Made by a program: the position numbers and the translations under genes
Notes under the pieces: model-generated
What the model saw: the letters and a program-made list of their open reading frames with translations, nothing else
What the model was told of the DNA's origin: nothing
Database searches by the model: none
In this document: positions 3,322 through 28,867 of the stretch, piece by piece
Layout of the letters: each line of letters begins with the position of its first letter
Numbering within the stretch: the first letter of the stretch is position 1
Source of the DNA: Alphaproteobacteria bacterium
Lineage (GTDB): Bacteria; Pseudomonadota; Alphaproteobacteria; UBA828
DNA: 64,000 nt
Direction of reading: 5' to 3'
NCBI GenBank assembly: GCA_965221125.1
Contig: CBDCRW010000005.1
Span: forward strand, 576,001-640,000

Positions 3322-4116
3322 ATGGCACGACGACTGGACGGCCGTGTCGCGCTGGTCACCGGGGCCGCGAAGGGCATCGGCAAGGCCTGCTGCCGCGCTC
3401 TCGCGGCGGAGGGCGCGCCGGTGGCGCTCGCCGATATCGACAGGGAAGGGGGTGAGGCGCTCGCGGCCGCGCTTGCGGCGGACGGCGCCGAGACGACGTT
3501 CATCGCCCTCGACGTGACGAGCGAAGCCGACTGGGAGGCCGCGATCCCGGCGATCGTCGACCGTTTCGGCGGCCTCGACGTGCTCGTGAACAACGCCGGC
3601 GTCGGCATCATCGAGCCTTTGCCGGACGTGACGCTGGAGAGCTGGCGCAAGAGCATGTCGGTCAATTGCGAGGGCGTCTTCCTCGGCACCAAGCATGCCA
3701 TGGCGGCGATGCGGCCGGGCGGCTCGATCATCAACGTCTCGTCGATCCTGGGCTTCACCAGCATTCCGGGGCTTTCCGCCTATAGTGCCACCAAGGGGGC
3801 GGTCAGGCTTTTCAGCAAGGGAGCCGCGCTCGACGGCGCCAAGGACGAGCGCCGCATCCGGGTGAACTCGATCCACCCCGGCTACATCCATACCGAGATG
3901 ATGGAGGCCACCTGCTACCGCGACTACGGCAGCCTGGAGGCGGGCTTACGCGAGCTTGCGAAGCAGCACCCCATCGGCCGCGTGGGCAAGCCGGAGGACA
4001 TCGCCAACGGCGTGGTCTTCCTCGCCTCCGAGGAATCGAGCTTCGTCACCGGCACCGAGCTGGTGATCGACGGCGGCTACCTCGCGGTCGGCGGCTATTC
4101 GGTCTTTCCGCAGTAA
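3322..4116 (+). CDS. SDR family oxidoreductase
   Basis: TGAAKGIG, NNAG, YSATK, IRVNSIHPG. Confidence 0.9.
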   Translation: MARRLDGRVALVTGAAKGIGKACCRALAAEGAPVALADIDREGGEALAAALAADGAETTFIALDVTSEADWEAAIPAIVDRFGGLDVLVNNAGVGIIEPLPDVTLESWRKSMSVNCEGVFLGTKHAMAAMRPGGSIINVSSILGFTSIPGLSAYSATKGAVRLFSKGAALDGAKDERRIRVNSIHPGYIHTEMMEATCYRDYGSLEAGLRELAKQHPIGRVGKPEDIANGVVFLASEESSFVTGTELVIDGGYLAVGGYSVFPQ

Positions 4117-24752: not shown

Positions 24753-24782
24753 CGCGCGTCCGATTGTGACGGACACACCCTA
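24750..24782. repeat. Short palindromic element bridging two convergent TAG stops
   Basis: TAGCGCGCGTCCGATTGTGACGGACACACCCTA; same GCGCGTCCG-N7-CGGAC core as 7284-7308. Confidence 0.6.
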
Positions 24783-25592
24783 AATCAGGACACCCCCGTC
24801 CACGTTGATGGCCTGCCCGGTGACGTGTGGGGCCTCCACCAGGTAGAGGGCGAGCGCGGCCATGTCGTCGGCGGTCTGCGGCACGCCTTGCGGAATGAAG
24901 CCCTCGACGATGCGCGAGAAGGCCTGATCGGGCGTCTCCCCCGGCTCCAGCTGGGCCTCGGTGAGATGCGTCCACATCTGCGTTCCCACGATGCCCGGGC
25001 AGATGCAGTTCACCGTGATGTCCTCGCGCGCGACCTCCTTGGCGAGCGCATTGGTGAACCCGACCACGGCAAATTTCGACGCGCAGTAGTGCGTGATGTT
25101 CTTGTAGCCGTTCCGGCCCGCGATCGACGCGATGTTGATGATCCGCCCGCCTCCGCCTTGCGCGCGCATGCGGATGACCGCCGCCTTGTTCACCAGGAAG
25201 GTCCCCCTGGCGTTCACGTCCATGGTGTAGTCCCACTCGGCTTCGCTGATATCGGCGATGGCGTGGGTGACGATGACCCCGGCGGCGTTGACCACGACGT
25301 CGACCCGGCCGAAGCGTTCGACCGTCTGCGCGAACATGGCGTCGACCTGGGCCCCGTCGGCGACATCCGCCTCGATGGCGACGGCATCGCCGCCGATCTC
25401 GGCCGCCACGGCCTCAGCCGCGCTGTAGCCGCCGATGTGGGTCTTCTCGTACTGGTTGCCGGCGCTCGGCGCATGCTCCAGCCCCGCGAGCGCGACCTTC
25501 ATCCCCTCCTCGGTGAAGCGGAGCGCGATGCCCTTGCCGATGCCGGTCCCGCCGCCGGTGACGAGCGCGACCTTGCCCGCTGCGTCCGTCAT
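24780..25592 (-). CDS. SDR family oxidoreductase (acetoin reductase-like)
   Basis: TGGGTGIG, NAAG, YCASKF, VNCICPGIVGT. Confidence 0.88.
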   Translation of the reverse strand: MTDAAGKVALVTGGGTGIGKGIALRFTEEGMKVALAGLEHAPSAGNQYEKTHIGGYSAAEAVAAEIGGDAVAIEADVADGAQVDAMFAQTVERFGRVDVVVNAAGVIVTHAIADISEAEWDYTMDVNARGTFLVNKAAVIRMRAQGGGGRIINIASIAGRNGYKNITHYCASKFAVVGFTNALAKEVAREDITVNCICPGIVGTQMWTHLTEAQLEPGETPDQAFSRIVEGFIPQGVPQTADDMAALALYLVEAPHVTGQAINVDGGVLI

Positions 25593-25693
25593 GTCCGTCC
25601 CACTCCCTCGTCAAGCTCTTCACGCACCGCTGCGTCGCGGTGGCCGTGAACGTGTGGCTTCGCGCGCCTGGAGTCCAGGCCTATGATCGTCCC

Positions 25694-26992
25694 GTGCAAA
25701 CGCTCTGCCGCGACTGCGGCCACCGGCCGCTCGGCCCCGCCGGCAGCTGCCCGGCCTGCGGGTCTGCGCGCGTACTCAGCCACGCGGAGCTGCACGACCT
25801 CGCCATCGCCCACCTCGACTGCGACGCCTTCTACGCCGCGATCGAGAAGCGCGACCGCCCGGCGTTGCGCGAGCGCCCCGTGATCGTCGGCGGCCGCCAC
25901 CGGGGCGTGGTCGCCGCCTGCTGCTACATCGCCCGCACCTACGGCGTCCGCTCCGCCATGCCCATGTTCAAGGCGTTGCGCGCCTGCCCCGATGCCGAGG
26001 TCATCAAGCCCGACATGAGGAAGTACGCGGCGGTCGGCCGCGAGGTCCGCGCCATGATGCTGGACTGCACGCCGCTGGTGGAGCCGCTCTCCATCGACGA
26101 GGCGTTCATGGACCTCTCCGGCACCCAGTCCCTGCACCGCGCGAGCGCGGCGGAGACGCTGGCGGCCCTCGCGCGCCGCGTGGAGGATGCGCTCTCCATC
26201 ACCGTCTCCGTCGGCCTCAGCTACAACAAGTTCCTGGCCAAGATCGCCTCCGACCTCGACAAGCCGCGCGGCTTCGCGGTGATCGGCCGGGCCGAGGCCC
26301 GCGCCTTCCTCGCCGACAAGCCGGTGGGGCTGCTGTGGGGCGTGGGCGCGGCGATGCAGCGGCGCCTCGCGCGGGACGGCATCACGCGCATCGGTGAGCT
26401 TGCCTGCCTCGACGAAGCCACGCTCGTTGCCCGCTACGGCAAGATCGGCAAGCGGCTCGCCATGTGCGCGCGCGGCGAGGATGATCGCCCGGTCAACCCC
26501 GAACGCGAGACCAAGAGCATCTCCTCGGAGATCACGCTCGACGAGGACATCACCGATCCGGCAGCGCTGCGCTCGATCCTCTGGCGCCTCACCGAGACGG
26601 TGGCCCGGCGCCTGAAGAAGGCCGGGCTCGCCGGCGGCGGCGTCACGCTCAAGCTCAAGACCGCCGACTTCCGCATCGTCACCCGCGCGCGGCGGCTCGG
26701 CGCCGTGACCCAGTCGGCGGACGAGATGTTCCGCGCGGCCGAGGCGCTGCTCGCCCGCGAGTGCGACGGCCGCGCCTTCCGCCTCATCGGCATCGGCGCC
26801 CACGCCCTCGCTCCGGCCGGGGACGCGGCCGAGGCCTCCCAGGGCGACCTCTTCGCCGATCCCGCGCCTGCCGAGGACAAGGTCGACAAGGCATTGGATG
26901 CCGTGCGCGACAAGTTCGGCGAGGACGCCATCGTCAGGGGCCGCGGCTTCGGCACGAAGCTCGTCCGCCAGGGCCCCTCCAAGGTGGAGTAG
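25694..26992 (+). CDS. dinB: DNA polymerase IV with N-terminal Cys4 knuckle
   Basis: LCRDC..CPACGS, HLDCDAFYAAIE, YIARTYGVRSAMP, SIDEAF, KFLAKIASD. Confidence 0.95.
   Translation: MQTLCRDCGHRPLGPAGSCPACGSARVLSHAELHDLAIAHLDCDAFYAAIEKRDRPALRERPVIVGGRHRGVVAACCYIARTYGVRSAMPMFKALRACPDAEVIKPDMRKYAAVGREVRAMMLDCTPLVEPLSIDEAFMDLSGTQSLHRASAAETLAALARRVEDALSITVSVGLSYNKFLAKIASDLDKPRGFAVIGRAEARAFLADKPVGLLWGVGAAMQRRLARDGITRIGELACLDEATLVARYGKIGKRLAMCARGEDDRPVNPERETKSISSEITLDEDITDPAALRSILWRLTETVARRLKKAGLAGGGVTLKLKTADFRIVTRARRLGAVTQSADEMFRAAEALLARECDGRAFRLIGIGAHALAPAGDAAEASQGDLFADPAPAEDKVDKALDAVRDKFGEDAIVRGRGFGTKLVRQGPSKVE
26966..26992 (+). repeat. Left direct repeat (att-like; last 27 nt of dinB)
   Basis: CGCCAGGGCCCCTCCAAGGTGGAGTAG. 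Confidence 0.9.
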
Positions 26993-27064
26993 ACTCGGCG
27001 ATTTCCGTGTGCAATTTCGCAAGTGCGAACCCTCGCCAATCTCAACACTTTGATCGCAAAGCGG

Positions 27065-27106
27065 AAAAAGAAAAGAGGGGACTTCCGGCTGGTGCTGGAA
27101 GTCCCC
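27065..27106 (-). terminator. Intrinsic terminator downstream of the islet HTH gene
   Basis: GGGGACTTCC/GGAAGTCCCC stem (27077-27106) followed on the minus strand by TCTTTTCTTTTT. Confidence 0.75.
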
Positions 27107-27213
27107 ATATGAGGCCCAATGACCCTGGAAACATCTCCCCGAGATGATCGCTTGTCGACGAACAGCCGGGGCTGTGATCTTGGCGTACAGGGCCCTCAGA
27201 CTAGGGTGAAGCC

Positions 27214-27720
27214 CTAATCTGGAGCCTCAACAGGTCGCCTGCGAAGGCCGGGTCGGGTCACTTCGCGGCGGCGTTTCTTGTTTTCCTCCTCGACTTCGCG
27301 AAATTCGGGCTCTAGCTCCGCCAGACGTGCTACGAGCCCACTGAGGTCGTATTCGTTGCTGAGTTTGCCCCGGTGGGGGGCCGTGCGCTCTATACGCTTG
27401 ACGTAACCCATTTCCTCAAGCTCGGCGATGTAGCGTTGCACCTGTCGAGCGCTCAGGTTCAGGCGCTCGCCAAGCGTCTGCTTCTTGGGCCACGGTCTGC
27501 GCTCTGCATCCCACCAATAGTCGGCGAGGTGCATCACAACCGCTAACTGCGTCGGGCTCAGTTTCAATCTGGCCTGAGCTCGAAGCAGTAAGGAGGGCAC
27601 AATGCAAAAGCCTAGCTTCATAACGGCTTTGCCCCACTTTCTCTCGGAAGCTTTGGCGGCACTCCGAGGGCGCAGGGCTATGATCTTGGCGGAATCGCGT
27701 GTCATATTGAGTTTTCCCAT
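27214..27720 (-). CDS. Helix-turn-helix protein (HTH_36/replication-initiator-like)
   Basis: WPKKQTLGERLNLSARQVQRYIAELEEMGYVKR..SNEYDL; start uncertain (27705, 27720 or 27804). Confidence 0.75.
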   Translation of the reverse strand: MGKLNMTRDSAKIIALRPRSAAKASERKWGKAVMKLGFCIVPSLLLRAQARLKLSPTQLAVVMHLADYWWDAERRPWPKKQTLGERLNLSARQVQRYIAELEEMGYVKRIERTAPHRGKLSNEYDLSGLVARLAELEPEFREVEEENKKRRREVTRPGLRRRPVEAPD

Positions 27721-27932
27721 GTCGACGCGTGCTTCCCAGCGAAGATATAGCTCTAAATCAGGTATTTCAATGGACATCAATGAGACATACATGTCGCGTG
27801 CCACAGGACAGTAGTGACCAGTGCCTGGAGTTGGCCATGTCTTGTGAATAAGGACTGCCTAATGTCCATACCAAGCTATACTTACGAACGAGGACCAGAT
27901 GCGTGCGGTCACTCATGTCCTGTCGGCTGAAG

Positions 27933-27959
27933 CGCCAAGGCCCCTCCAAGGTGGAGTAG
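27933..27959 (+). repeat. Right direct repeat (att-like; duplicate of the dinB 3' end)
   Basis: CGCCAAGGCCCCTCCAAGGTGGAGTAG; last 21 nt identical to 26972-26992. Confidence 0.9.
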
Positions 27960-27979
27960 GCCCGGCCGGAAACCGACTC

Positions 27980-28867
27980 TTACCGCCGCATCCCGACGGC
28001 AGCCTGCCCGCCGATGCTGCCGAGGATGATGAGCCCGCCGACGAGAGTGAGCACGCTCGGCACTTCGCCGAAGGCGAGCCATACCCAGATCGAGGCGAAC
28101 ACCACCTCGGTCAGCGACAGCACAAGCAGCTCGGCCGCCGGCACGTTCCTGGCGCCGATGGTCAGCATGAAGATGCCGGCGCCGATCACCAGCACGCCGT
28201 ACATCGCAGCCAGGCCCACATCGACGATGGGTGCTGCGAGCCCGGTGCCGTCGGCTGCCGCCATCACGGCGCTGAATGCGGCGGTGATCGCGGCGCCGAT
28301 CAGGATCGTCGGCGACATGTCCGTGTGGCGGCCGCGCCGGATCGCGACCGAGAAGCCCGCGAAGCCCACCGCCGAGGCGAGCGCCGCGAGGTCGCCCAGC
28401 AGGTCGGACTCGGCCAGCCCCTCGCCGATCATGATGGCGACACCCGCGATCACGCCGAACATGGCGAACCACATGGAGCGCGCCACCCGCTCGCGCAGCA
28501 CCATCCAGCCGAGGAAGGCCGCGACCAGCGGCGCCGCGCTGATGAGGAAGAGCGCGTTCGCCACCGTGGAGTGCATGACCCCCCACACGTAGCCGGTGAA
28601 CGCCACCGCGAGACCGAGGCCGCCCACCAGCCCGTTCGCGCCCGCGCTCCGCACCATCTCCAGCACCGGGCGGCGGGTGATGAGGAAGTAGAGCAGGATC
28701 ATCGCCGCCGCGCCGAGGGAGCGGTAGAACAGGAACTGCCACGGCGTGCTCTCGTCGGCGAGCCGGATGATCGGCCCGCCGAGGCTCATGCAGAGCCCGG
28801 CCGAGAGCACCCAGAGCCGGCCCGTGATGCGGCCGCGGTCGGGCCCGGAACCCGGGATCGTGGTCAA
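27980..28867 (-). CDS. DMT/EamA family transporter
   Basis: About 10 TM helices; STVANAL, VLRERV, AFGEVPS. Confidence 0.88.
   Translation of the reverse strand: MTTIPGSGPDRGRITGRLWVLSAGLCMSLGGPIIRLADESTPWQFLFYRSLGAAAMILLYFLITRRPVLEMVRSAGANGLVGGLGLAVAFTGYVWGVMHSTVANALFLISAAPLVAAFLGWMVLRERVARSMWFAMFGVIAGVAIMIGEGLAESDLLGDLAALASAVGFAGFSVAIRRGRHTDMSPTILIGAAITAAFSAVMAAADGTGLAAPIVDVGLAAMYGVLVIGAGIFMLTIGARNVPAAELLVLSLTEVVFASIWVWLAFGEVPSVLTLVGGLIILGSIGGQAAVGMRR

Follow-up and report, generated by a model that had tools for sequence, protein, structure and literature searches.

A sub-kilobase, recombinase-less module between att-type repeats at the 3' end of dinB in an alphaproteobacterium

The duplicated end of dinB and the DNA it encloses

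The window analyzed here is a stretch of 64,000 nucleotides (64 kb) from an alphaproteobacterial genome assembly, in which the 3' end of dinB is present twice. As the initial annotation had claimed, dinB is intact and a second copy of its last 27 nt lies 967 bp downstream, with 26 of 27 nt identical between positions 26966-26992 and 27933-27959; a longer alignment (26966-26999 with 27933-27966) retains 31 of 34 nt, and both copies share a perfect core of 21 nt that, in the first copy, finishes at the dinB stop codon. The features of the locus are as follows:

25640-26992, plus strand: dinB (DNA polymerase IV type), 450 aa, intact; the last seven codons and the stop form the att core
26966-26999, plus strand: attL-side direct repeat; perfect core at 26972-26992
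26993-27059, no strand assigned: variable spacer from the core to the terminator, presumed P' arm; TCGCAA twice, at 27017 and 27054
27060-27106, minus strand: hairpin resembling an intrinsic terminator; stem at 27077-27106, then a U-run (from an inverted repeat and the minimum free energy fold)
27107-27216, minus strand: conserved structured 3' RNA, 'type A', of about 110 nt; begins with a hairpin over the stop codon
27214-27705, minus strand: winged-helix protein (HTH_36/DnaD_N/RP-C), 163 aa, intact
27706-27932, minus strand: repeat-studded 5' region; GACAT seven times (27719-27919) and a conserved box, TCCTTATTCA (27845-27854)
27742-27770, minus strand: sigma-70-like promoter match, TTGAAA, 17 nt, TATCTT, 37 nt before the ATG; a consensus match only
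27933-27966, plus strand: attR-side direct repeat; perfect core at 27939-27959
27980-28867, minus strand: convergent EamA-family transporter gene (Pfam EamA, 5e-24); host DNA of the right flank

The dinB product is of the DinB/Pol IV type (Pfam IMS, 8e-47; IMS_C, 2e-27), and the gene carries its core within a block of core genes. The anatomy of the repeat is that of an att site: (i) the core runs to the stop codon, (ii) the adjoining mismatch, which is the only one in the 27-nt repeat, is synonymous (CAG versus CAA), such that both copies encode R-Q-G-P-S-K-V-E-stop, and (iii) similarity at the codon level fades further inward. The encoded tail is itself conserved, as an RQGPSK-type ending is found in nearly all of the best 120 DinB homologs (76-96% identity) and takes the exact form TKLVRQGPSKVE in 37 of them. 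Additional copies of the core with up to three mismatches are absent from the rest of the 64-kb window, and two matches to the core arose in 0 of 100 shuffles. Excision is predicted to leave the dinB stop 20 nt from the EamA stop, the distance originally proposed. No paper naming dinB as an integration site was found in the literature.

The 946 bp enclosed between the repeat copies (26993-27938) have a GC content of 56.0%, as compared to 72.4% for dinB, 70.9% for the EamA gene and 70.0% for the whole window, which bears out the lower GC first remarked on; the lowest value (49.4%) is reached at 27706-27938. The 163-aa helix-turn-helix (HTH) protein is the sole family-matching ORF of the insert. 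Integration and transfer genes are absent from the insert, which is too small to hold a recombinase gene in addition to the HTH gene. An integrase next to another copy of the core had been suggested as something to look for; the window yields neither a further core nor a recombinase gene among the 54 ORFs examined, a set that required GC3 of at least 0.75 and that small or overlapping genes could escape. The 64-kb window has no tRNA genes, and the repeats listed for the region include no inverted repeat linking both ends of the insert. Phage records gave no DNA match and one weak match in a protein search. The insert is foreign, att-flanked, recombinase-less DNA at the 3' end of dinB, which it leaves intact.

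A winged-helix protein between a repeat-studded 5' region and a structured RNA

The length of the HTH protein is set at 163 aa by its homologs, in agreement with the single intact HTH protein initially called. Its profile matches (Pfam HTH_36, DnaD_N and RP-C) cover the winged-helix part only, and by Pfam and PHROG it resembles the N-terminal domains of replication initiators (DnaD_N, RP-C and phage O-like). An AlphaFold2 model (mean pLDDT 74.6) has the DnaD N-terminal domain as its best Foldseek match in the PDB, followed by the MarR family; the modeled fold is a DnaD-N-like or MarR-like winged helix. NCBIfam has no named family for the protein (for RepC, its 14 bits fall short of the cut-off of 150), and the ESM Atlas returns only unnamed 'HTH domain' clusters. 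Compared to the homolog of a syntenic relative (L005, below), the protein is 88% identical, yet identity at four-fold sites is 53%; on these sequence comparisons the gene is under purifying selection. Fused forms of the protein were considered and set aside, as the sole long homolog (P0004, 320 aa) resembles a read-through tail.

One homolog resides on plasmid pB379_4, a ColE1-type replicon with RNAI, and is thus not the Rep of that plasmid. Others are paired with PD-T4-5/AbiD-like (Abi_2) genes (L017, L027, L028 and L030; also L029 and L031) in defense hot spots. These paired units are similar to the window element in that a member of the same winged-helix family (56-68% identity) comes first and a partner second. 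By contrast, the HTH gene of the window is followed by a structured RNA and terminator in place of an Abi_2 gene, with no ORF there. The 'Rep-like' label first given to the protein is weakened by its fold, by the ColE1-type plasmid homolog and by several of the PD-T4-5/AbiD-like pairings.

Upstream of the HTH gene, the array of repeated motifs noted previously is recovered as GACAT, which occurs seven times, compared to about 2.3 expected per 1150 nt from the whole-window count; the word is short, is found in both orientations and is irregularly spaced over about 200 nt. The first conserved site of this 5' region is 14 nt from the attR core. Homologous 5' regions, each with a repeat word of its own, are found in six related elements (L006, L007, L011, L015, L020 and L023).

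Downstream, the intrinsic terminator of the initial annotation stands as a minus-strand hairpin with a 13-bp stem and a U-run, which a simple terminator scan did not call; the hairpin is kept by compensatory changes in relatives, with 5 of 14 pairs changed on both sides. Between the HTH gene and this terminator is a conserved structured RNA that had gone unmentioned. RNAalifold on five sequences gives 49 pairs, including the terminator hairpin, of which 16 are changed on both sides, as compared to 5.8 +/- 1.9 in shuffles (16 being reached in 0 of 500) and 1-5 with slid partners. The type A RNA is also found in L015 and L032. The only Rfam match, a weak one to BjrC68, covers the hairpin and scores 21 bits where the gathering score is 39. 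Target choice guided by RNA, in the manner of bridge RNAs, was rejected, since elements that differ in target share a conserved 3' RNA; no core-like stretch is seen in it by inspection. A 17-nt repeat (27169-27185 and 27675-27691) was also discarded as a general feature, being significant in only two of seven elements (the window and L005). The insert is, in sum, a conserved module of three parts: the repeat-studded 5' region, the 163-aa winged-helix protein and the structured 3' RNA with its terminator.

Related modules with and without a recombinase

Among 30 related loci, L005 is the only syntenic one, with dinB followed by the same module. In this independent assembly, the dinB end is followed in turn by spacer, terminator, RNA and HTH gene, as in the window; the spacer (26993-27059 in the window) has no similarity to its counterpart. 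The L005 module is broken by an IS110 element in the HTH gene and is adjoined by transposon genes. A family of larger islands targeting dinB, from which one of the two origins first envisaged would derive the insert, was not found; L005 is the one syntenic relative. The two DinB proteins are only 88-89% identical. The shared position of the module may reflect old, vertical inheritance. The orthologous dinB end of L005 differs at 4 of 21 core positions, and divergence at four-fold sites between the genomes is 24-47%, whereas the two cores of the window are identical at 21 of 21; the repeat may thus have arisen after the split or have been kept uniform. No second copy of the dinB end was detected in L005 within the 10 kb fetched, including by short-word BLAST, and the right boundary lies beyond. 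As an indirect point in favor of a mini element, none of the contigs (0.93-3.55 Mb) bearing the closest DinB homologs (93-96%) matches a contig from the best 120 HTH clusters.

In four of the 30 loci, the module alone, with no recombinase, is flanked by direct repeats of the 3' end of another gene in units of 1.1-1.7 kb, and a fifth locus brings the repeat-flanked units to five:

L007: 1455 bp; module only; 329-nt repeat from the stop
L023: 1591 bp; module only; direct repeats of another gene's 3' end
L033: 1136 bp; module only; repeat finishes at the stop; truncated HTH gene
L020: 1729 bp; module only; direct repeats of another gene's 3' end
L031: 3667 bp; fifth repeat-flanked unit; truncated HTH gene

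The L023 unit includes an ORF of the excisionase family (TIGR01764, 36.5 bits; cut-off 28.8) and no integrase. No sequence is evidently common to the att sites across the five or six mini units; thus, no single helper fits them all. The direct repeats are 21-329 nt in length across units, a variation that is also consistent with integration driven by homology. MITEs and other transposons were rejected as an identity for the insert, as terminal inverted repeats are lacking and the duplications are not short and of fixed length.

The repeat-flanked units are interspersed on the protein tree with relatives that carry a recombinase. In six of the 30 loci (L015-L018, L021 and L032), an Xer-like tyrosine recombinase gene immediately precedes the module and is read in the same direction, in the position where the window element has attR; the six are not independent, as L016-L018 represent three Caballeronia species. 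In L015, 8 nt separate the stop codon of the recombinase gene from the first conserved 5' site, compared to the 14 nt between that site and attR in the window. Around the units of recombinase and module at the six loci, the only short direct repeats were two 11-mers, which are taken as chance. At the related loci, 93 of 122 and 96 of 121 ORFs were submitted to Pfam in two filtered sets, which small or overlapping genes may escape. A search of E. coli genomes with the enterobacterial module gave nothing beyond an unrelated match of 160 nt.

Comparison with known elements and origin of the insert

Classical tyrosine-integrase islands and prophages replace gene 3' ends, as exemplified by e14 and phage 21 in icd. 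Like these, the window element brings a surrogate 3' end, leaving its target gene intact and the gene end duplicated; the classical elements encode an integrase and span tens of kb, whereas the window insert encodes none. The IMEX (e.g., CTX-phi and TLC) also have no recombinase and are inserted by host XerCD at chromosomal dif, a short and simple site. The window element is likewise recombinase-less, and a reliance on Xer-type tyrosine recombinases is proposed for it; it differs in its site, the last codons of dinB, which is set apart from dif by position, and in its candidate enzymes, Xer-like proteins that are encoded by elements and score well under the XerC/XerD cut-offs.

The CIMEs are described as elements flanked by attL and attR that are devoid of integration and transfer genes and rely on the recombinase of another element using the same site (PMC5704250). 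The window element matches this plan in its attL and attR repeats (34 nt, with a 21-nt perfect core) and its gene content, but is far smaller (0.95 kb), has no sign of ICE ancestry (L020 being the only relative examined with conjugation or mobilization genes near the module) and is of a type that recurs as a defined unit instead of as random debris. The microcin H47 island of E. coli is reported to have imperfect direct repeats and no recombinase of its own, with trans-acting host functions performing excision and integration in a 'parasitic strategy' (PMC3191183). The window element is similarly repeat-flanked and devoid of recombinase genes. By contrast, the microcin island is 13 kb, has cargo and long repeats with several crossover segments, and lacks the HTH/RNA module; mobility of that island was shown experimentally.

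With a probability of about one half, the insert is a non-autonomous, CIME-like integrative mini element whose integration relied on a recombinase acting in trans. A 967-bp circle would have carried an attP mimicking the dinB end, and this attP would have recombined with the conserved 21-bp core of dinB through a tyrosine recombinase encoded outside the element. The likeliest enzyme would be an Xer-like recombinase similar to those whose genes immediately precede the module in relatives, coming from a related element at another place in the genome or from one formerly in tandem. The element-borne codons are proposed to rebuild the DinB C-terminus, so that the host gene is unharmed. The winged-helix protein may bind the repeats of its own 5' region for autoregulation and possibly to assemble a recombination or replication complex beside attR, while the structured RNA and terminator may serve to end and stabilize the transcript or may form a separate RNA. 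Of the satellite of about 1 kb first envisaged, mobilized in trans and equipped with a Rep-like protein, it is the small trans-mobilized unit that gains from the four module-only loci and the six with an Xer-like gene; the Rep-like label is weak.

The leading alternative, less probable and yet a serious contender, is that the insert is a dead relic: an island with its own integrase (int, 5' region, HTH gene and RNA, as in L015) would have entered dinB and then lost int and any cargo by deletion, leaving DNA that is immobile and either neutral or kept for an HTH protein or RNA useful to the host. Relatives with int directly upstream of the module are of the type required, the presence of the module at the same dinB site in as divergent a relative as L005 fits a long residence, and decay is evident in the transposon-invaded L005 module and in the truncated HTH genes of L031 and L033. 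The CIMEs are, moreover, by definition ICEs or IMEs that have decayed but retained the att sites (PMC5704250). A deletion of this kind must, however, have taken int to about its stop and yet spared an attR just 14 nt from the conserved 5' site, and outcomes of comparable neatness are found in at least four other lineages. The intact HTH gene and the selection upon it also argue against a relic, as does the non-coding attR core, which still matches the dinB copy in full where the orthologous L005 core has diverged.

An integrated mini-replicon is improbable. By this account, a plasmid-like circle of about 1 kb (iterons, small initiator and control RNA) took up the dinB end and entered by Campbell-type homologous recombination with no site-specific recombinase. 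The matches of the HTH protein to initiator N-terminal domains and the element-specific repeat arrays upstream of its gene fit this account, as do repeat lengths that vary as expected if only homology matters. The 5.7-kb Vibrio plasmid p93U204, which carries an HTH homolog, has no other ORF of at least 100 aa as a candidate Rep. A weak lead comes from a hand count of the best 120 homolog clusters, in which the longest contig is 900-999 nt in 16, compared to 5 in the next 100-nt bin. However, the protein has just one winged-helix domain and is roughly half as large as known iteron initiators, the pB379_4 homolog is not the Rep of that plasmid, and other homologs are paired with Abi-like genes in defense hot spots. 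A homology of 21-34 nt is very short for RecA-dependent recombination, and three short contigs tested for circularity (L008, L009 and L027) have no terminal overlap. The homology, furthermore, ends at the stop codon in the window, L007 and L033, which favors selection for a gene-restoring attP over capture of a fragment. An assembly artefact, in which a small unrelated contig was misjoined at a short shared word, is very improbable: the window is a single assembly, yet the independent L005 assembly has the matching order, the two junctions lie within a 21-nt repeat that makes sense at the codon level, and the architecture recurs at other genes in other genomes.

The non-autonomous mini element, if taken further, leads to a more tentative reading in which the insert is one of many non-autonomous integrative elements of 1-1.7 kb that form a widespread family ('MITEs of genomic islands'), each composed solely of a conserved winged-helix protein, its binding repeats and a structured RNA. 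Such elements would mimic the last codons of a conserved gene and borrow Xer-like recombinases, and the RNA of one branch would be a tRNA-like gene with an expanded anticodon arm. In a bolder variant, the HTH-RNA pair may be the functional unit, with the RNA replacing the Abi-like defense protein of sister modules. No paper was found in the literature on miniature or non-autonomous integrative elements or on a tRNA-like gene beside such an HTH gene.

The known integrase-less, att-flanked elements (CIMEs, the MccH47 island and IMEX) are usually seen either as debris or as special cases of several kb. The window element is instead below one kilobase, has a conserved and defined anatomy and is of a kind met repeatedly, in separate lineages, at the 3' end of one conserved gene or another. 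Its winged-helix family, which is very widespread, uncharacterized and common in defense islands, is adjoined by two conserved RNA structures that were undescribed. If mobilized in trans, the element would be about the smallest integrative element described, and site-specific islands, like transposons, would spawn miniature non-autonomous parasites.

The dinB 3' end and the DNA it encloses

The 946-bp insert between two copies of the dinB 3' end (26993-27938) is read here, with a probability of about one half, as a non-autonomous integrative mini element. A circular molecule of 967 bp, its attP mimicking the dinB end, would have been integrated by a tyrosine recombinase encoded outside the element, most plausibly a Xer-like enzyme from a related element, and excision would be possible only with the help of such a recombinase.

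Features of the insertion site (window coordinates, strand)
25640-26992, +: dinB, a 450-aa ORF bearing the DinB-type polymerase domains IMS and IMS_C
26966-26999: left copy of the dinB 3' end (attL)
Between the hairpin and the dinB core: 67-nt spacer, without conservation even in syntenic L005
Between the type-A RNA and the spacer, -: hairpin with a 13-bp stem and a U-run; stem with compensatory changes
27107-27216, -: type-A RNA, a conserved structured 3' RNA
27214-27705, -: intact 163-aa HTH ORF, its length taken from homologues
Attachment-site (attR) side of the HTH ORF, -: AT-richer 5' region, 230 nt, with GACAT seven times, a promoter match and a shared box
27933-27966: right copy of the dinB 3' end (attR)
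27980-28867, -: EamA family transporter gene, convergent to dinB

The initial annotation had placed a duplicate of the last 27 nt of dinB 967 bp downstream (26/27 identical, with a 21-nt core including the stop), leaving dinB intact, and comparison of the repeats bears this out. The final 27 nt recur at 27933-27959 with one mismatch, within a wider repeat of 34 nt (31/34 identical) whose perfect 21-nt core has the TAG stop at its end. The core occurs at just two sites in 64 kb at up to 3 mismatches, and two matches arose in 0 of 100 shuffles. The sole mismatch is synonymous (dinB CAG, distal CAA), both copies encoding R-Q-G-P-S-K-V-E-stop; a fainter codon-level likeness extends a few codons farther into dinB, and past the stop the copies diverge at once (4/7 nt identical). 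The peptide that the core encodes is conserved: almost every one of the 120 top-ranking DinB homologues (76-96% identity, Defluviicoccus sp. among them) terminates in an RQGPSK-type tail, with the exact TKLVRQGPSKVE in 37. To judge from sequence, this is the pattern expected of an element that brings along a substitute for the 3' end of its target gene, with recombination taking place within that stretch. Excision of the insert and one copy would leave 20 nt between the dinB and EamA stop codons, the distance originally proposed.

The enclosed DNA was also correctly described as lower in GC and as holding one intact HTH protein, its own terminator and a motif array. The GC content of the insert is 56.0%, compared to 72.4% for dinB, 70.9% for EamA and 70.0% for the window, and drops to 49% at 27706-27938. 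On the minus strand, from attR toward dinB, the insert consists of the 5' region, the HTH ORF, the structured RNA, the hairpin and the spacer. The 5' region has seven GACAT copies inside 200 nt, versus about 2.3 expected per 1150 nt, a sigma-70-like promoter (consensus match) 37 nt 5' of the HTH start codon, and a box, TCCTTATTCA, common to relatives. There is no room for a recombinase gene in the insert; a Pfam scan of 54 window ORFs detected no integrase, resolvase or transposase, with GC3 >= 0.75 required, such that a low-GC foreign gene could escape. The insert is surrounded by core chromosomal DNA, with rpsM, rpsK, rpoA, rplQ and metabolic genes, and the remaining window stretches below 64% GC are all short.

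The DinB of the window (residues 23-43, window 25640-25800) has two CxxC pairs (CRDC...CPAC) on an extension N-terminal to the polymerase domain, with only weak zinc-ribbon-like Pfam matches.

The winged-helix protein and the RNAs beside it

The comparison set comprises 30 related loci from one genome search with the HTH protein, designated by L-numbers.

Features of related loci
L007: 1455-bp period; 329-nt repeat, 91%, starting at the stop codon; target NOV_C-domain gene
L023: 1591-bp period; 45-nt repeat, 37 perfect; target 3' end of an 826-aa tetrapyrrole-methylase gene
L033: 1136-bp period; 39-nt repeat, ending at a TGA stop; target luciferase-like gene; HTH gene truncated
L020: 1729-bp period; 94-nt repeat; target inside a Replic_Relax ORF
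L031: 3667-bp period; 146-nt repeat; unit also with GNAT and Abi_2 genes; HTH gene truncated
L005 6208-7970 and 8557-9837, L018 5607-8614, L022 4208-8121: TniA/TniB(/TniQ)-type transposon genes adjoining the module (3/30 loci)
L028 9929-11186, L029 9962-11219, also L017, L027, L030, L031: HTH gene paired with a PD-T4-5/AbiD-like (Abi_2) gene; partner 219-244 aa
L010 10500-10606, same position in L004, L008, L009, L012, L013, L020, L021, L024, L025: tRNA-like gene

A longer reading of the HTH ORF (196 aa) finds no support in the homologues, which have 163-168 aa. The protein matches HTH_36, DnaD_N, RP-C and PHROG replication-initiation families, all via one winged-helix domain, and no NCBIfam family names it. 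Its AlphaFold2 model (mean pLDDT 74.6) is closest to the DnaD N-terminal domain, then to MarR-family regulators. The family includes 1096 proteins at E <= 0.001 out of 1702 candidates, mostly of 163-170 aa, with a mean column identity of 67% over 42 members. The repeated word of the 5' region is specific to each element (e.g., TAGGCGT in L007, GACCGG in L011 and GACTAG in L020). The HTH protein is taken to be a DNA-binding protein that probably acts on its own 5' region, and its candidate further roles are those of initiator, regulator or recombination accessory factor.

The domain matches to initiator N-termini and the element-specific repeated words point to replication, as does the 5.7-kb Vibrio plasmid p93U204, where the HTH protein is accompanied only by toxin-antitoxin genes and two PAGEV RNAs. 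Other observations speak against replication: the 2.8-kb E. coli plasmid pB379_4, which encodes a homologue, carries RNAI and is thus a ColE1-type replicon; the recognition helix is near-invariant family-wide, yet the repeated words vary by element; and a PD-T4-5/AbiD-like gene lies directly downstream of the HTH gene in L017, L027, L028 and L030. An Abi_2 gene is likewise downstream in L029 and L031, and in L028 and L029 the HTH and Abi_2 pair is set among P2-like prophage genes, between portal/terminase genes and the gpA replication gene. A further point against replication is that many related loci are rich in defense genes, among them restriction-modification, SMODS, SIR2, AbiV and Shedu.

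By hand count, the longest contig is 900-999 nt in 16 of the 120 best HTH homologue clusters, versus 6 at 600-899 nt and 5 at 1000-1099 nt. This excess, near the 967-bp period, may stem from circles or from assemblies that break where elements end, or may be due to chance.

The approximately 110 nt of conserved non-coding sequence after the HTH gene (the type-A RNA) fold into 49 pairs, including the terminator hairpin (RNAalifold, 5 sequences). Sixteen pairs are altered on both sides, versus 5.8 +/- 1.9 in column shuffles (0/500 as high) and only 1-5 once partners are slid. The structure is shared by L005, L006, L007, L011, L015 and L032, two of which lie outside the five-sequence alignment, and the window sequence on its own has a folding z-score of -2.6. 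Rfam at E <= 10 returns no family for this RNA except a weak BjrC68 match over the terminator. A 17-nt direct repeat (16/17; 27169-27185 and 27675-27691) links an internal loop of the RNA to HTH codons 5-10; it is significant in the window, weaker in L005 and absent from the other five type-A elements.

The type-A RNA occupies the position held in a sister group by a tRNA-like gene, found about 5-15 nt after the HTH stop codon in 10 of the 30 loci. This gene combines a 7-bp acceptor stem, D and T arms and an encoded CCA with an insertion of about 33-36 nt in the anticodon loop that forms a separate covarying hairpin. ARAGORN calls none of the ten; the Rfam tRNA model gives 55 bits for the L010 gene with a 36-nt insert, and the other nine were identified by eye. 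In L011, a fragment resembling the 3' end of a tRNA (~3330-3380, with T arm and acceptor strand) lies about 100 nt beyond the module terminator, and the 13-kb locus contains no complete tRNA; the fragment may be an att remnant between two tandem islands.

Repeat-flanked units, recombinases and age of the insertion

The module (5' region, HTH gene and 3' RNA) lies between direct repeats in five of the 30 loci (L007, L020, L023, L031 and L033). No recombinase ORF is found within any of these units, four of which (<=1.7 kb) have little or no space for one besides the HTH gene. Each has at least one flank with a higher GC content, and the L023 unit encodes an excisionase-family protein. Together with the window element, the five are spread over separate parts of the HTH protein tree.

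A co-directional gene for a tyrosine recombinase of about 300 aa immediately precedes the module in six loci (L015, L016, L017, L018, L021 and L032), which are not independent, since L016-L018 represent three species of Caballeronia. These enzymes are Xer-like, with scores far under the XerC/XerD cut-offs. In L015, the recombinase stop codon is 8 nt before the first conserved 5'-region site; in the window, the attR core is found there, 14 nt away. Other enzyme types also occur near the module: a serine recombinase upstream in L013 and, 1.3 kb downstream in L026, a P4-type integrase. The Pfam scans of related loci covered filtered sets of 93/122 and 96/121 listed ORFs, excluding previously scanned ORFs, HTH ORFs and some overlapping ORFs.

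L005, the syntenic locus, belongs to an alphaproteobacterial MAG with a DinB 88-89% identical to that of the window. Collinearity with the window extends from 16.6 kb to within the HTH gene, and dinB end, spacer, hairpin, RNA and HTH gene follow one another as they do there. In L005, the HTH gene is interrupted by an IS110 transposase gene; a TniA/TniB-like pair lies directly upstream, followed by helicase- and primase-like genes. Tn5053-type transposons home to recombinase-bound res sites and, if such homing applies, the module 5' region may by analogy be a res-like site. A short-chain dehydrogenase gene (24780-25592), immediately 5' of dinB, is absent from the otherwise collinear L005, a second small gene-content difference here. 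No second dinB-end copy occurs in the 10 kb of L005 examined. L005 thus independently confirms the left junction; the initial annotation had proposed looking in related genomes for empty sites and larger elements at dinB, and L005 offers no empty site and no larger island that is clean.

Comparison of the window with L005 gives 88% identity for the HTH protein and 53% for its four-fold sites (66 sites), and 89% and 76% (250 sites) for DinB; the HTH gene has thus been under purifying selection. The L005 dinB end differs from the window core at 4/21 positions, yet the two window copies, one of which is non-coding, are identical at 21/21. If the insertion predates the split, a few differences should have built up, and zero differences would, by rough estimate, have a chance of a few per cent; thus, the window repeat appears to be younger than the split or to have been kept uniform. 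The DinB homologues nearest that of the window (93-96%) are on contigs of 0.93, 3.33 and 3.55 Mb, and no contig of such size is among the 120 best HTH clusters; thus, the nearest relatives may be without the element.

A possible but less favored explanation is a relic that has lost its own recombinase by deletion and is now immobile, which accounts for the same dinB site and the decay in L005 but requires a neat deletion to recur in several lineages and leaves the perfect repeat unexplained. An improbable alternative, Campbell-type entry of a tiny replicon through homologous recombination, agrees with the variation in repeat length. It accords poorly with the 21-nt core, with homology that stops at stop codons and with the weak case for a Rep function. 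An assembly artefact, raised at the outset as a means of refutation, is very improbable given the independent left junction of L005.

Relation to known elements

IMEX elements rely on Xer-type enzymes, as is proposed for the mini element of the window, but they insert at the dif site, whereas its site is the end of dinB. Ordinary islands have their own integrase, which this element lacks. The element would function like a CIME as defined in PMC5704250. It would also resemble in its working the microcin H47 island, which is integrase-less and uses trans-acting host functions (PMC3191183). A limited literature search found no paper that names dinB as an attachment site and none on miniature elements of this kind. 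The main points of interest are the recurring, defined sub-kilobase form and the undescribed RNAs beside a widespread, uncharacterized protein family.
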